A stretch of 64,000 bases of DNA from a phage. The stretch is taken from the NCBI GenBank assembly GCA_018175075.1, contig GCA_018175075.1_4100.1, one strand, 5' to 3'. Positions 60,590 through 64,000 of the stretch are shown here, piece by piece. Below the pieces are notes generated by a model that was given only the letters and a program-made list of their open reading frames with translations, was not told the origin of the DNA and did no database searches. The position numbers were made by a program, and so were the translations under genes. Each line of letters begins with the position of its first letter. Positions within the stretch are counted from its first letter, which is position 1.

Positions 60590-60787
60590 ATGCGTATTTT
60601 AACTAAAGAACAGCACCACGAAAGACTTATCAATAACATGGCTATGATAATGTATAAGTCCCATGACCGTGGTATTGCCTATAAGCGTGAATTAATTATG
60701 GCACTATTCATTGGAACTAACTTTCAGGAAAGGTATGTCAACGATTGGATTTGGTATTTAATTGAAGATATAACGAGTAAACTATGA
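60590..60787 (+). CDS. tandem family 2 small protein
   Basis: AAGGGAG RBS; IGTNFQERY motif; first member. Confidence 0.55.
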   Translation: MRILTKEQHHERLINNMAMIMYKSHDRGIAYKRELIMALFIGTNFQERYVNDWIWYLIEDITSKL

Positions 60788-60984
60788 AAATGCGTATTTT
60801 AAATAAAGAAGAATATCAATCACTGTTACGTAAAAACTACGTAAAGATTTACAACACAGACACACATGTAGAACGAATGGAGTTATACCTTTTGATTACA
60901 TTGGGAACAAACTATCAGGGTAGATGGGTGTGGCAATATATGGATACATTGAAAAATAAAATATTGTCCACGAGGAAACAATGA
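60784..60984 (+). CDS. tandem family 2 small protein
   Basis: ATGA coupling; LGTNYQGRW motif. Confidence 0.55.
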   Translation: MKMRILNKEEYQSLLRKNYVKIYNTDTHVERMELYLLITLGTNYQGRWVWQYMDTLKNKILSTRKQ

Positions 60985-61190
60985 AAACTATAACACGAAC
61001 CCAATCATACGGTCTTATCTTGAAATACATGGACTTAATGGTGGATATCAGCAAAGACCTGCCTAAAACTGAAATTGAAGTTGCAAGAGCAGAGATCCGC
61101 ATGTTGGCTGTACTGAACACAAACCATCAGGAAGAGTATGTTCAAGATTGGATTCGATTTTTAATAGAAGATATTAAGAGTAAACTATGA
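60981..61190 (+). CDS. tandem family 2 small protein
   Basis: ATGA coupling; family motif. Confidence 0.55.
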   Translation: MKTITRTQSYGLILKYMDLMVDISKDLPKTEIEVARAEIRMLAVLNTNHQEEYVQDWIRFLIEDIKSKL

Positions 61191-61399
61191 TTATATTAAC
61201 ACCTGAAGAATATAAGAAACGTTTTAAATCTGTCCAGGCTGAAATATTACTTATATACCTTTCAAATGCAGATCTTAACTTATCAAGGGTAATGGAGAAG
61301 GATTTACTTATGGGTGCATTTTTGGATACAGACTTTCAGGAGTATTATGTAGGAGAATACTTTATTGCACTTCAGAACCACATTAAGAGTAAACTATGA
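61187..61399 (+). CDS. tandem family 2 small protein
   Basis: ATGA coupling; family motif. Confidence 0.55.
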   Translation: MIILTPEEYKKRFKSVQAEILLIYLSNADLNLSRVMEKDLLMGAFLDTDFQEYYVGEYFIALQNHIKSKL

Positions 61400-61611
61400 T
61401 TATTCTAGAAAAATCATATCAATATACTGAACGCATCGCTGCCAGACAACTTGAAATCCTCATAATATACGAAGAGACTTCTGATTTAAACTTAGCCGAG
61501 GTATTGGAAAATGAAATACTTTTGGGTGCATTCTTGGGAACAGACTATCAGGAGTATTATGAGGAAAAGTATTTGTCATCTCTTGAGAAATACGTCAGGA
61601 GCAAACTATGA
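61396..61611 (+). CDS. tandem family 2 small protein
   Basis: ATGA coupling; LGTDYQEYY motif. Confidence 0.55.
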   Translation: MIILEKSYQYTERIAARQLEILIIYEETSDLNLAEVLENEILLGAFLGTDYQEYYEEKYLSSLEKYVRSKL

Positions 61612-61835
61612 AACATTTAAGTAATATAGAGAAGAATAAAATTATCATTGCTGTAATAAACAAATATTTTACACTTCCACAAAAAGAATGTTTATCTATA
61701 AGGGAACACAGGATAAACACCACCGAGATTCGCATGTTGGCTGTACTGGGGACTAACTTCCAAGAAGGCTATGTTCATGAGCACATCGTTGCACTCACTA
61801 ATTACATAATGGACAAATGTAATGAACATCATTAA
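61608..61835 (+). CDS. tandem family 2 small protein
   Basis: ATGA coupling; LGTNFQEGY motif. Confidence 0.55.
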   Translation: MKHLSNIEKNKIIIAVINKYFTLPQKECLSIREHRINTTEIRMLAVLGTNFQEGYVHEHIVALTNYIMDKCNEHH

Positions 61836-62046
61836 TAACTTTGAATACGAGGCCCGTGCTAAGAGTGCCAGAAAAAAAGAGAACACCATTTACTTCACTA
61901 TGATGTACTTACAATGGACTGAAATTGAAGAAAAGGTTGCTGAAGTATGGATGTTGGAATTCATGGGGACGCAGTATCAGAATAGGTTTGCGGGTGAGTA
62001 TATCAATGTTCTTATGAAACAAATAGAAAGAAAGGAAAAGAACTAA
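61822..62046 (+). CDS. tandem family 2 small protein
   Basis: overlapping start; MGTQYQNRF motif. Confidence 0.5.
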   Translation: MNIINNFEYEARAKSARKKENTIYFTMMYLQWTEIEEKVAEVWMLEFMGTQYQNRFAGEYINVLMKQIERKEKN

Positions 62047-62204
62047 TGGTTTTCATTAACATATCTGACCAACTCGATACTAAACTAGAAGTCGAGCAGA
62101 GTGAGGGATGGATGTTGTACTTTCTTGGAACTTCTCATCAGAATTTTTATATCCATGAACACATAGTTGCACTCACAAATCTAATAAGGGATAAATGTAA
62201 ATGA
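62046..62204 (+). CDS. tandem family 2 small protein, short member (52 aa)
   Basis: TAATG coupling; LGTSHQNFY motif; below track size cutoff. Confidence 0.4.
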   Translation: MVFINISDQLDTKLEVEQSEGWMLYFLGTSHQNFYIHEHIVALTNLIRDKCK

Positions 62205-62458
62205 AACACTTGACGAACGATGAATATTCACTTAGAATTCGAAAGCTCACCCCAGAAGCAAGAGTAATCTACGATGACGATGCACTTTCATGGAACGAGA
62301 TGAAAGTTAAAGTTCATGAGCTATGGTTGCTGTACTTTGTGGGAACCCAATATCAAGAGAAATATTGTACCGATTATCTTGAACAACTAATGGATCTTAT
62401 ACAGATAAAACTAAATGAACGAATTGTGGAAAAATATGAAAACTTTATCAAGCTCTGA
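62201..62458 (+). CDS. tandem family 2 small protein (C-terminally extended)
   Basis: ATGA coupling; VGTQYQEKY motif; runs past the usual stop position. Confidence 0.5.
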   Translation: MKHLTNDEYSLRIRKLTPEARVIYDDDALSWNEMKVKVHELWLLYFVGTQYQEKYCTDYLEQLMDLIQIKLNERIVEKYENFIKL

Positions 62459-62687
62459 GTATCAAGCCGCCCTCTTCTCTATTCTTAACACCCTTAGAAA
62501 AAACTATGCATTACATGGTGCACCTGAATTGGATGTTATCAACGGTGATGTTTATCTTATGAAATTCATTGGAACAAACTATCAAGAACTGTTCATTCTA
62601 CGATACCTATCAGCATTAAGAAACCAAATCCAATATAAAACCGTCAAGGCCAAAAAAGAATGGAATAAACAATGCGACAAAGACTAA
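62436..62687 (+). CDS. tandem family 2 small protein
   Basis: start set at MKTLSSSEYQ; IGTNYQELF motif. Confidence 0.5.
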   Translation: MKTLSSSEYQAALFSILNTLRKNYALHGAPELDVINGDVYLMKFIGTNYQELFILRYLSALRNQIQYKTVKAKKEWNKQCDKD

Positions 62688-62923
62688 ATCACAAAATGTA
62701 TTGTAAACTATTGCAGACACTGGCACAGAAACACTATGACACTGTATCTGAAATATTACCCTATGATATCATGCGTTTAATTCATAGTGAGGCAGAGATG
62801 CTTGTACTGATGACAGGCACTGATAAAAAAGCAATTGCCAAATCAATAGATATGTTCATCGAAGCACAATGTCAACACATTAGAACCGAGATATGGAGAC
62901 GAGAGAATGATAACACTAAATGA
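62672..62923 (+). CDS. tandem family 2 small protein (divergent)
   Basis: overlapping start; MTGTDKK in place of GTNYQ. Confidence 0.45.
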   Translation: MRQRLNHKMYCKLLQTLAQKHYDTVSEILPYDIMRLIHSEAEMLVLMTGTDKKAIAKSIDMFIEAQCQHIRTEIWRRENDNTK

Positions 62924-63122
62924 GTTTCAGTATCATTGGAGGTTACAAGCTATAAGAAGGAAAGTTGTTAGTATTTCTTTAGACAAGTCTATTGCACAAG
63001 AGGACAAATGTGTTATAATAGCTGAAATGAAGTTGGGTGCTTTCGTAGGAACAAACTATCAAAACATCTACACTGACGTATTGTTAAGTGCCTTACGTAA
63101 CAAGGTGATATCTAAAGAATGA
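62907..63122 (+). CDS. tandem family 2 small protein
   Basis: overlapping start; VGTNYQNIY motif. Confidence 0.55.
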   Translation: MITLNEFQYHWRLQAIRRKVVSISLDKSIAQEDKCVIIAEMKLGAFVGTNYQNIYTDVLLSALRNKVISKE

Positions 63123-63337
63123 GAAAATTACAAGGCTTTGAATACATCAGACTCCTGAAAACATGTGCCAACAGAAGAGTAAAGATTCAATCTGATAAGA
63201 GCATCCCTGCCAACCTAAAACATGCAATGGTAGCTGAACTCTATGCAGGGGCACTCATAGGGACAAACTATCAACAAATGTATATAGACATGTGGGTTGA
63301 TGCATTAGTCAAGGTGACCCAAAGTAAATGCAAATGA
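63119..63337 (+). CDS. tandem family 2 small protein
   Basis: ATGA coupling; IGTNYQQMY motif. Confidence 0.55.
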   Translation: MRKLQGFEYIRLLKTCANRRVKIQSDKSIPANLKHAMVAELYAGALIGTNYQQMYIDMWVDALVKVTQSKCK

Positions 63338-63546
63338 TTAATTTAAGTAAAGATGAATATTATGAACGTCTTGCAAAAACTTATCCAGCACGTAACGCCG
63401 TTTATAATAGTAACATTATTGAACGCTCAAAGAAGTTGATTGTAGTAAATGAGATTAAGATGCTTTCAGTCTTAGGAACAAACTATCAAGAGAATGCTGT
63501 ACTGTTGTTAATTGATGCCCTCCAGAGAGAGATACAAAGTAAATGA
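63328..63546 (+). CDS. tandem family 2 small protein
   Basis: overlapping start; LGTNYQENA motif. Confidence 0.55.
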   Translation: MQMINLSKDEYYERLAKTYPARNAVYNSNIIERSKKLIVVNEIKMLSVLGTNYQENAVLLLIDALQREIQSK

Positions 63547-63791
63547 TTCATTTATCTTACCATGATTATCAAAAACGTTTAAATGCATCAAGGGATATAA
63601 GGATTCAAATCTTCAATAACAAAAAATTGAAACCTGACACCAGAAGAATCAAAATGATAGAAGCAGAGTTATGCAACTTCCTGGGGACGAACTATCAGGC
63701 AGGTAAGGTAAAAAACTATCTTAGAGAACTAATGATTTGTATCGAAAATAAATGTGAGGTTGATGAACATGCAAATGATCAATTTAAGTAA
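63543..63791 (+). CDS. tandem family 2 small protein
   Basis: ATGA coupling; LGTNYQAGK motif. Confidence 0.55.
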   Translation: MIHLSYHDYQKRLNASRDIRIQIFNNKKLKPDTRRIKMIEAELCNFLGTNYQAGKVKNYLRELMICIENKCEVDEHANDQFK

Positions 63792-64000
63792 AGATGAATA
63801 TACCGAGCGTATGACAAAAATTACGCACAAACGTAATACAATCTATCACAACCCAGAAATCCAACACAGTAAGAAAATGATTATGATGCGTGAGTTAAAG
63901 ATGGGTGTATTCTTAGGAACAAACTATCAAGATACAGAAGTAAATCGCTTAATCGCGGAGTTACTACTGGAAATCAAAGGTAAGCTGTACTTTCATCAAA
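63769..64000 (+). CDS. tandem family 2 small protein, 3' truncated by window end
   Basis: MQMINLSKDEY N-terminus nearly identical to 63328 gene; LGTNYQDTE motif; no stop before 64000. Confidence 0.5.
   Translation, partial: MQMINLSKDEYTERMTKITHKRNTIYHNPEIQHSKKMIMMRELKMGVFLGTNYQDTEVNRLIAELLLEIKGKLYFHQ

Follow-up and report, generated by a model that had tools for sequence, protein, structure and literature searches.

What does a phage gain from carrying, head to tail at a single site, many diverged copies of one small gene? The question is raised by positions 60,590-64,000 (+ strand) of a 64,000-nucleotide (nt) stretch of phage DNA (NCBI GenBank assembly GCA_018175075.1, contig GCA_018175075.1_4100.1), the whole of which is called the window below. 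The open reading frame (ORF) listing and alignments resolved this region into 15 complete genes plus one cut by the window end, all members of one family of paralogs of ~70 amino acids (aa). A reading of the letters made without database searches (the sequence-only reading) had claimed at least 16 such tandem genes, and that count was borne out. We propose, at a probability of roughly 0.4, that the array is an operon, probably early, of small binders that keep a common scaffold and diversify its surface, and that it serves as an accessory repertoire for host takeover or anti-defence.

Identification of the array

The series of ORFs on the + strand is unbroken from 60,560/60,590 to the window end, with products of 52-90 aa. 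A hidden Markov model (HMM) was built from the 15 complete ORFs and matched all 16 members (16/16) at E-values of 1e-19 to 1e-29; six-frame translation of the 64-kilobase (kb) window gave no further family member, the next best score being E 0.77. Because of this separation the array is real, far beyond chance. Alignment of the 15 complete ORFs and the cut sixteenth gave the consensus M-x-x-L-x-x-x-E-Y ... F-L-G-T-N-Y-Q-E-x-Y-V ... L ... I-x-S-K, in which one Leu is nearly invariant, and pairwise identity of the proteins to a reference member was 16-36%. As had been noticed from the letters, an N-terminal segment, M-x-x-L-(T/S/N)-x-x-E-Y, is present in most members and a central motif recurs in all, with an invariant Thr; the exact form GTNYQ, however, is limited to 7/16, and across the array the motif is [G/D/N]-T-x-x-[Q/K], with Gln in 15/16.

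Every junction between neighbouring genes overlaps (15/15): eight are 4-nt ATGA overlaps, in line with the earlier statement that most junctions are of this type, one is of 1 nt and six are of 10-44 nt. Shine-Dalgarno-like strings (AAGAG/GGAG) lie within the final codons of the upstream gene at array junctions. The first start codon was kept at 60,590, 5 nt after a Shine-Dalgarno sequence AAGGGAG (60,578-60,584, +) whose GGAG is conserved in relatives. A longer first ORF from 60,560 was considered and set aside as an unlikely start, since it would begin directly after the -10 hexamer of the predicted promoter described below.

Relatives and database matches

A megablast search with 60,500-64,000 gave matches of 84-90% identity in 36 phage records, among them G17, Sharanji, PBECO4, slurp01, Ecwhy_1, phAPEC6 and four Salmonella SD phages, and every feature under the match was annotated 'hypothetical protein'. 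By this similarity the window is assigned to an Asteriusvirus-type jumbo coliphage (PBECO4/121Q/G17-like), a type in which ~83% of proteins are without known function (PMC7247149). All 16 members have orthologs in G17 and PBECO4 at 72-100% aa identity, in the same order save for a swap of members 4 and 5. Nine of ten tested members matched PHROG 4148 (E 4e-15 to 7e-24, profile positions 1-71 of 74); the member starting at 62,672 missed this profile yet matched the window-built HMM at E 1e-21. PHROG 4148 includes the hypothetical Asteriusvirus proteins 121Q gp319-341, G17_00585-00613 and phAPEC6 gp481c, and both it and the split-off PHROG 28039 are labelled 'unknown function'. Judged by these matches, the array is already catalogued as PHROG 4148, with orthologous arrays deposited in dozens of genomes, and is not new as a sequence feature.

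Searches of Pfam and NCBIfam gave no match above threshold for array members, a PADLOC scan of them was empty (its library holds defence proteins, not anti-defence proteins), and a sequence-profile search of the PDB returned coronin coiled coils only (E ~0.2). A profile search of 1.84 billion cluster representatives gave 71 clusters, all of 52-122 aa. Word-indexed searches found only Asteriusvirus proteins, among them some from ~345-380 kb phage contigs within 'E. coli' assemblies, save for a few metagenomic relatives and the Klebsiella phage phiKp_21. Two metagenomic contigs carry the family: L007, a divergent relative in synteny with the array, has ~20 members, and L006 (29% guanine plus cytosine) has ~6 dispersed ones. 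The Klebsiella relative of the family is present in RaK2, K64-1, Muenster and other Alcyoneusvirus phages. A tblastn search of two distant metagenomic relatives against GenBank phages found nothing, a related-locus search of IMG/VR with a single member returned 121Q alone, and the C-terminal extra domain of the 121-135-aa relatives (Klebsiella phiKp_21/RaK2 type and metagenomic) had no match in Pfam or PHROG. The virion proteome of phAPEC6 (one study, its Table 1) contains nothing between gp347 and gp549; the family member there is gp481c.

Coding status and selection

The Thr codon of the motif is ACN, with T/A/G/C as third base in 4/8/2/2 members; the Gly codon uses all four bases at its third position and the Gln codon ends in G in eight members and in A in eight, while first and second positions of the motif codons are fixed. 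Median DNA identity among paralogs was 51%, and direct DNA repeats inside the array are patches of 20-70 nt at most. Differences between orthologs fell on codon positions 1/2/3 in the numbers 83/66/116 (versus G17) and 61/49/114 (versus PBECO4), with pooled pN/pS of 0.40 and 0.32, respectively. Across 306 ortholog pairs drawn from the window and five genomes, the 26 core or conserved columns gave a dN/dS of 0.17, and the 45 variable surface columns gave 0.47. In the same pairs no pervasive positive selection was seen, per-column dN/dS being at most ~1.0, a value reached at one column. Each paralog is individually kept by moderate purifying selection.

Structure prediction

AlphaFold2 models were computed for the members starting at 62,201 (16-sequence alignment; predicted local distance difference test score, pLDDT, 97.4; predicted template modelling score, pTM, 0.81) and 63,328 (44-sequence alignment; pLDDT 96.7, pTM 0.82). 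The two paralogs are 30% identical to each other and have the same topology, a confidently predicted up-down-up three-helix bundle. In both models a beta-bridge runs from N-terminal residue 2 or 4 to the invariant Thr (residues 2 and 49 in the 62,201 model), and the Gln of the motif is the first residue of helix 3. A T/S-x-x-E capping box (family columns 5-8) immediately precedes helix 1, in agreement with the helix limits assigned by DSSP. To read G-T-x-x-Q as a classic N-capping box with Thr as N-cap would be tentative, as in the DSSP assignment helix 3 opens at the Gln and the Thr belongs to the beta-bridge.

An alignment of the 31 G17 paralogs showed conserved hydrophobic columns with helical periodicity (4, 9, 13, 23, 29, 36, 41, 43, 45-47, 55, 56, 59, 60, 63, 67 and 71) and conserved polar positions (E8, E40, G48, T49, Q52, E53 and K70, and T5 too); entropy at the other columns was near maximal. 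From these features we infer that the GTNYQ motif would be mainly a fold determinant rather than an active site. The array proteins are predicted to be soluble, with isoelectric points (pI) of 4.4-9.8 and a grand average of hydropathy that is negative or ~0 for every member, and no cysteine pattern was found among them.

A Foldseek structural search gave no significant match (MIT domain, E at least 4.8), and comparison with characterised anti-defence and anti-CRISPR inhibitors with solved structures gave no significant similarity in sequence or fold. The MIT domain, the FAT domain and the protein A Z-domain/affibody scaffold resemble the array proteins in size and in up-down-up three-helix topology, but share no sequence similarity with them, so that the likeness is one of analogy alone. 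Three-helix bundles commonly serve as scaffolds for binding, the core being conserved and the surface varied.

Genomic position and promoter

The array adjoins a long terminal repeat. Sequence coverage puts the terminal redundancies of phage G17 at ~20 kb (PMC6563267), and fEgEco12 has a 20,993-bp direct terminal repeat (DTR) determined by PhageTerm and restriction digests (PMC13070987). The first base of the G17 record aligns to window 60,492; the inner end of the fEgEco12 repeat maps to the same base (GGGTAACCT, then TAGCGAC) and its outer end to 39,039, where the start motif of the repeat is present. Because the repeat ends of fEgEco12 and the start of the G17 record map there, window 39,039-60,492 (21.45 kb) is by homology the DTR, collapsed to one copy in the assembly. 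The inner boundary, at 60,492/60,493 between GGGTAACCT and TAGCGACTTCGA, is conserved in the divergent metagenomic relative L007, and its core, CT followed across the boundary by TAGC(G/A)CTT, is common to Klebsiella phage Muenster. The array start codon at 60,590 is 98 nt inside the unique region next to the DTR; the array is not within the repeat.

The same placement was found in a second genus. The PhageTerm repeat of Muenster ends at 20,030, the next two genes (20,246-20,434 and 20,524-20,890) are family members (E 8e-8 and 2e-12), and two weaker members lie ~3.5 kb further on; Alcyoneusvirus phages have 2-4 family copies only. Because the Muenster members also follow the repeat boundary, the position is ancestral, and only in the Asteriusvirus lineage did the family grow about tenfold.

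A candidate sigma-70-type promoter lies at 60,532-60,559 (+), TTGACT-N16-TAAAAT, with 10/12 consensus matches. Its -35 hexamer and spacing are conserved in G17, 121Q, CRJP21, Ecwhy_1, fEgEco12 and L007 in the form TTGACT-N16-TA(A/T)(A/T)AT. PBECO4 differs: after its repeat-proximal genes and ahead of array gene 1, an extra 366-nt gene (PBECO4 locus 8,552-8,917) and a promoter TTGACA-N17-TATGAT take the place of the boundary region that the other phages conserve. Perfect TTGACA-N16/17-TATAAT promoters number 13 in the window, all on the + strand and 11 of them inside the DTR, against 0.22 expected by chance; they lie at 2,452, at 13,884 and within 42,503-58,734, most share the extended form AGTACTGTATAAT, and they are likely an early-promoter class. 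In the distantly related jumbo phage PA5oct the DTR genes form the early class by RNA-seq (PMC7318152); no Asteriusvirus transcriptome was found. On the + strand of G17 no terminator was found until ~11 kb downstream, the first convincing one being at G17 locus 20,097.

Copy number, gene order and recombination

Iterated HMM searches counted 31 family members in G17, 31 in PBECO4, 29 in CRJP21, 28 in Ecwhy_1 and 25 in 121Q, of which 23-29 per genome lie in one contiguous block of at most ~6.4 kb, with one or two outliers ~1.3-1.6 kb further on. These numbers agree with the earlier claim that the array runs past the window end. Because the relatives carry 25-31 copies, the window is expected to hold roughly the first half of the array, with ~12-14 more members beyond its end.

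Clustering of the members gave 36 orthogroups in largely conserved order. Orthogroups 6, 7, 8, 14, 16, 19, 21 and 34 are present in some genomes and absent in others, and orthogroup 20 has a local duplicate (20-20). The window is without orthogroup 16, the G17 gene between members 15 and 16. In the window, Ecwhy_1 and 121Q, orthogroups 4 and 5 stand in the reverse of the order seen in G17, PBECO4 and CRJP21, and the swap can be followed in the DNA: 61,178-61,399 corresponds to G17 locus 9,891-10,112 at 94.6% and 61,382-61,611 to G17 locus 9,674-9,903 at 97.0%. Around the swapped genes (61,187-61,611) an identical 22-nt junction, ATTAAGAGTAAACTATGATTAT, occurs at 61,173 and at 61,382 and is a plausible recombination substrate.

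The dS of neighbouring orthologs ranged from 0 to 0.6, a spread that indicates recombination mosaics between phages. There is evidence of recombination within the array as well, in that helices are common to otherwise dissimilar paralogs: helix 3 is 72% identical between members 1 and 3 and 78% between members 6 and 8, and helix 2 is 53% identical between members 3 and 6. The sequence-only reading had taken the nearly identical N-termini of 63,328 and 63,769 as a sign of recent duplication. The resemblance is there (32/33 nt) but the dating does not hold, since the two belong to separate orthogroups (14 and 17) and have ~58% DNA identity; the close match is limited to the first 33 nt and to 23 nt that cover the motif. 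All five compared genomes have orthogroup 17 and four have orthogroup 14 (missing from 121Q), and the pattern resembles that of an old duplication in which gene conversion or constraint acted locally.

Proposed function and alternatives

In the reading that we favour, the region would be the first half of one long transcription unit of ~30 diverged paralogs, transcribed most likely from the candidate host sigma-70-type promoter 40 nt inside the unique region, beside the ~21-kb repeat; read-through from the promoter-rich repeat would also be possible. The paralogs may be made together, because the overlapping stop and start codons suggest translational coupling. They would share a scaffold made of the hydrophobic core, the T/S-x-x-E capping box and the G-T-x-x-Q turn, which is stapled to the N-terminus in the models and opens helix 3, and nearly all positions outside this scaffold differ between paralogs. 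It is because the scaffold is kept while nearly everything else differs that we suggest a set of small proteins which would bind other proteins stoichiometrically, as inhibitors or adaptors, and would be made early in infection. Duplication, loss, reordering and recombination at the level of helices would diversify this repertoire. The targets may be host proteins, or proteins of host defence or of competitors; host targets, which the sequence-only reading proposed to seek by pull-downs, are plausible. Coding status, predicted fold, selection on each paralog, array dynamics, placement at the repeat boundary and non-detection in the one virion proteome come from the analyses above; the early timing, the binding activity and the nature of the targets are what we infer here.

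Several points weigh against this proposal. No homolog of known function was found in the Pfam, NCBIfam, PADLOC or PDB sequence searches. The dN/dS of 0.47 at the surface is relaxed purifying selection, not the positive selection expected of an ongoing arms race. Early timing is uncertain because the array's own promoter matches only 10/12 of the consensus and is without the AGTACTGTATAAT signature of the strong DTR promoters. The conserved pole of the fold (N-terminal strand plus GTNYQE turn) could, alternatively, be a shared interaction site. Finally, absence from virions rests on one proteome, and mass spectrometry easily misses small proteins.

A more specific form of the idea, tentative and in our view rather doubtful, is that the array does in a phage what terminal multigene families do in large DNA viruses of eukaryotes. 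It would be a germline-encoded library of three-helix-bundle binders, whose individual paralogs would neutralise different targets in host defence or takeover and so help to set host range. Two to four ancestral copies at the repeat/unique junction would then have grown to ~30 and been reshuffled by gain, loss and helix-level recombination. In a variant of this idea, the conserved pole would dock all paralogs on a common hub, such as a protease or a modifying enzyme, and the variable faces would select substrates, making the proteins adaptors.

The best surviving alternative to a binder repertoire, itself unlikely, is mutual binding of the paralogs, or their binding to one phage partner in common, to form a hetero-oligomeric, non-virion intracellular structure such as a replication or assembly platform. 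Apparent co-transcription and translational coupling would favour such co-production, the conserved pole (M-K-x-L-T-x-x-E-Y and L-G-T-N-Y-Q-E) and K70 occur in all paralogs, and each paralog is individually conserved between phages. Members are nonetheless dispensable: orthogroups are missing in at least one phage and copy number falls from 25-31 to 2-4 in Alcyoneusvirus. A defined multi-subunit structure is disfavoured because it should not tolerate such loss. Charge and surface also vary widely (pI 4.4-9.8), and no coiled-coil or polymer-like match was found for the array proteins.

We regard it as improbable that the proteins are small nucleic-acid-binding regulators (transcription or translation factors, or nucleoid proteins). 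They are small and helical, some are basic (net charge +6 and +7), and expanded families of putative transcription factors have precedent in jumbo phages, as in the ~35-copy zinc-ribbon expansion of Bacillus phage G, proposed as regulators (PMC7824862). Comparison with helix-turn-helix and other DNA-binding three-helix domains showed neither the geometry or matches of such domains nor a conserved basic surface.

That the array is functionless filler, tandem duplicates tolerated in order to fill an enlarged headful capsid (the 'ratchet' of Hua et al.), seems very improbable. Hua et al. attribute arrays of this kind in 121Q and phage G to growth of the genome through tandem duplication (PMC5646251), individual members are dispensable, and purifying selection is only moderate (0.32-0.40). 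Against this, each of the 160 copies in the window and five genomes has kept an intact ORF that the family HMM recognises, dN/dS stays far below 1 and is lower in the core than on the surface (0.17 versus 0.47), paralogs at 25-35% identity still keep a confidently predicted fold, and the DTR-adjacent position is conserved across genera.

The last alternative, which the sequence-only reading had named as the outcome that would undo its claim, is that a non-coding DNA repeat gave rise to the motif and that the ORFs are accidental; it is excluded, since third positions of the motif codons vary freely while positions 1 and 2 are fixed, DNA repeats are confined to the 20-70 nt patches, orthologs differ most often at third positions (116 versus 83 and 66) and HMM E-values are as low as 1e-29.

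Comparison with known systems

The closest systems are the PHROG 4148 arrays of other Asteriusvirus phages, which are the same family at the same locus with syntenic orthologs; the window differs from them by strain-level variation only (the 4/5 swap, the lack of orthogroup 16 and mosaic divergence). The published tandem duplications of 121Q and phage G are the same phenomenon and, for 121Q, possibly this very array. They were mentioned in one sentence without analysis and described as 'very similar' copies, unlike the copies here (25-35% identity), and the phage G family is a zinc ribbon whereas the array encodes a metal-free three-helix bundle. The present analysis adds a predicted fold, an interpretation of the motif in structural terms, the pattern of selection, the repeat-boundary placement in two genera, the lineage-specific expansion and the helix-level mosaicism.

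The host-takeover module of Bacillus phage SPO1 has a comparable counterpart in phage T5, whose terminal repeat carries the pre-early genes. The SPO1 module comprises 26 small early genes in a 12.4-kb terminal region, and several of its products bind host proteins, e.g. Gp53, an adaptor-like protein for ClpC (PMC6873191). Like the array, the SPO1 module gathers many small genes where a genome ends in a long terminal repeat; its genes are individually dispensable in the laboratory, and array members are variably present between phages. SPO1 has consensus host-type promoters and strong ribosome-binding sites; the array has one conserved promoter with 10/12 matches and a good Shine-Dalgarno sequence before gene 1, the perfect-consensus promoters being upstream of it in the DTR. 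The SPO1 genes, however, are not mutual paralogs and lie inside the repeat, whereas the array is one family that starts 98 nt outside it, and there is no sequence or fold similarity between the two. Because it lies outside the repeat and its genes are paralogs, the array is not a member of the SPO1/T5-type modules.

Poxvirus terminal host-range gene families and 'genomic accordions' are comparable to the multigene families (MGFs) of African swine fever virus (ASFV). In ASFV, MGF 100/110/300/360/505 lie near the genome termini and many members inhibit host innate immunity (PMC12172490). Like the array, these MGFs are tandem paralogs by the genome ends; their genes are duplicated, deleted and transposed, so that isolates gain and lose members, and the array shows the architecture of a terminal multigene family in that it adjoins the DTR, has 25-31 copies, varies in orthogroup presence and is reordered. 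The MGFs nevertheless belong to a eukaryotic virus and encode much larger, unrelated proteins; immune evasion by the array is put forward as a hypothesis only.

Asteriusvirus phages and their relatives spend several percent of a ~350-kb genome on uncharacterised arrays of small paralogs, and the present array is a concrete, tractable candidate for a diversified host-interaction repertoire. If the proposal is true, the array would represent a new family of small proteins that modulate those of the host or its defences, and a bacterial-virus example of terminal multigene-family evolution, so far studied mainly in pox- and asfarviruses; if not, it is an ordinary, already-catalogued block of hypothetical genes. 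Nothing in the findings contradicts what is expected of jumbo-phage accessory regions.

Individual members of the array

All members lie on the + strand, and the E-values below are those of the window-built HMM unless a PHROG is named. Member 1 (60,590-60,787; 65 aa; GTNFQ; E 2e-22) matched PHROG 4148 at E 1e-19 and has 100% aa identity to G17_00613, and member 2 (60,784-60,984; 66 aa; GTNYQ; E 1e-21) likewise has a 100% identical G17 ortholog. Member 3 (60,981-61,190; 69 aa; NTNHQ; E 6e-25) matched PHROG 28039 at E 2e-39. The swapped pair consists of member 4 (61,187-61,399; 70 aa; DTDFQ), whose ortholog is the fifth gene of G17 and PBECO4, and member 5 (61,396-61,611; 71 aa; GTDYQ), whose ortholog is the fourth. 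Member 6 (61,608-61,835; 75 aa; GTNFQ; E 4e-28) matched PHROG 4148, and member 7 (61,822-62,046; 74 aa; GTQYQ; E 2e-26) is absent in Ecwhy_1.

One truncated and one C-terminally extended gene had been noted from the letters. The truncated one was found as described: member 8 (62,046-62,204; 52 aa; GTSHQ; E 9e-19) is without helix 1, has an identical protein in G17 and is absent in Ecwhy_1 and 121Q. Extensions, by contrast, occur in four members (62,201; 62,415; 62,672; 63,543) and add 10-18 residues at the C-terminus. Member 9 (62,201-62,458; 85 aa; GTQYQ; E 1e-29) has a C-terminal helix extension; member 10 (62,415-62,687; 90 aa; GTNYQ; E 7e-24; PHROG 4148, E 7e-20) is extended at both ends; member 11 (62,672-62,923; 83 aa; E 1e-21) has the degenerate motif GTDKK, no PHROG match and an ortholog dN/dS of 0.23-0.26; and member 15 (63,543-63,791; 82 aa; GTNYQ; E 2e-27), with its C-terminal extension, matched PHROG 4148. 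Between them stand member 12 (62,907-63,122; 71 aa; GTNYQ; E 4e-27), member 13 (63,119-63,337; 72 aa; GTNYQ; E 2e-28; PHROG 4148) and member 14 (63,328-63,546; 72 aa; GTNYQ; E 3e-25). Member 16 (63,769-64,000; at least 77 aa; GTNYQ; E 1e-19), of orthogroup 17, is cut by the window end and has 99% aa identity to its G17 and PBECO4 orthologs.

Neighbouring features

Downstream of the array, the same terminator-free stretch of G17 (15,437-21,776) carries PHROG 13866 paralogs (~105-135 aa, four copies) and proteins of ~170-190 aa that include two PHROG 19795 copies and three with weak PHROG 12674 matches; all of these genes are of unknown function and they form further paralog families.

At the other end of the unique region, 34,374-38,765 (+) holds an array of a different family (family 1), with ~19-22 genes of ~60 aa that have an N-terminal (H)KEYY and a C-terminal LxLIYRY/LKLISI. 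It ends 274 nt before the outer DTR boundary, so that paralog arrays stand at both ends of the unique region. Kinship between the two families was rejected (hhalign probability 10.6%), and they are taken as unrelated. An ORF-poor interval of ~1.9 kb (38,766-40,700) spans the outer DTR boundary; a signal for packaging or replication is one possibility, and a non-coding RNA of the kind reported from the PA5oct repeat is another. Scans for tRNAs and Rfam families around the array and in 38,766-40,700 were empty.

Within the DTR, an identical terminator-plus-promoter cassette, AAAGGGATTGACTCCGGTCAGTCCCTTT GCTATTATAT, occurs at 56,743-56,780 and 59,007-59,044 (+), its -35 hexamer TTGACT lying inside the hairpin stem. 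Intergenic repeats of ~60-110 nt recur there as well, e.g. at 40.7, 44.3, 46.7, 47.0, 48.8, 49.5 and 53.1 kb, and further at 53.5, 53.6, 56.8, 56.9, 57.7 and 58.7 kb. Before the family 1 array, a 394-aa ORF (33,105-34,289, - strand) contains G-x-x-G-x-L-G-like repeats that resemble those of RCC1/beta-propeller proteins.

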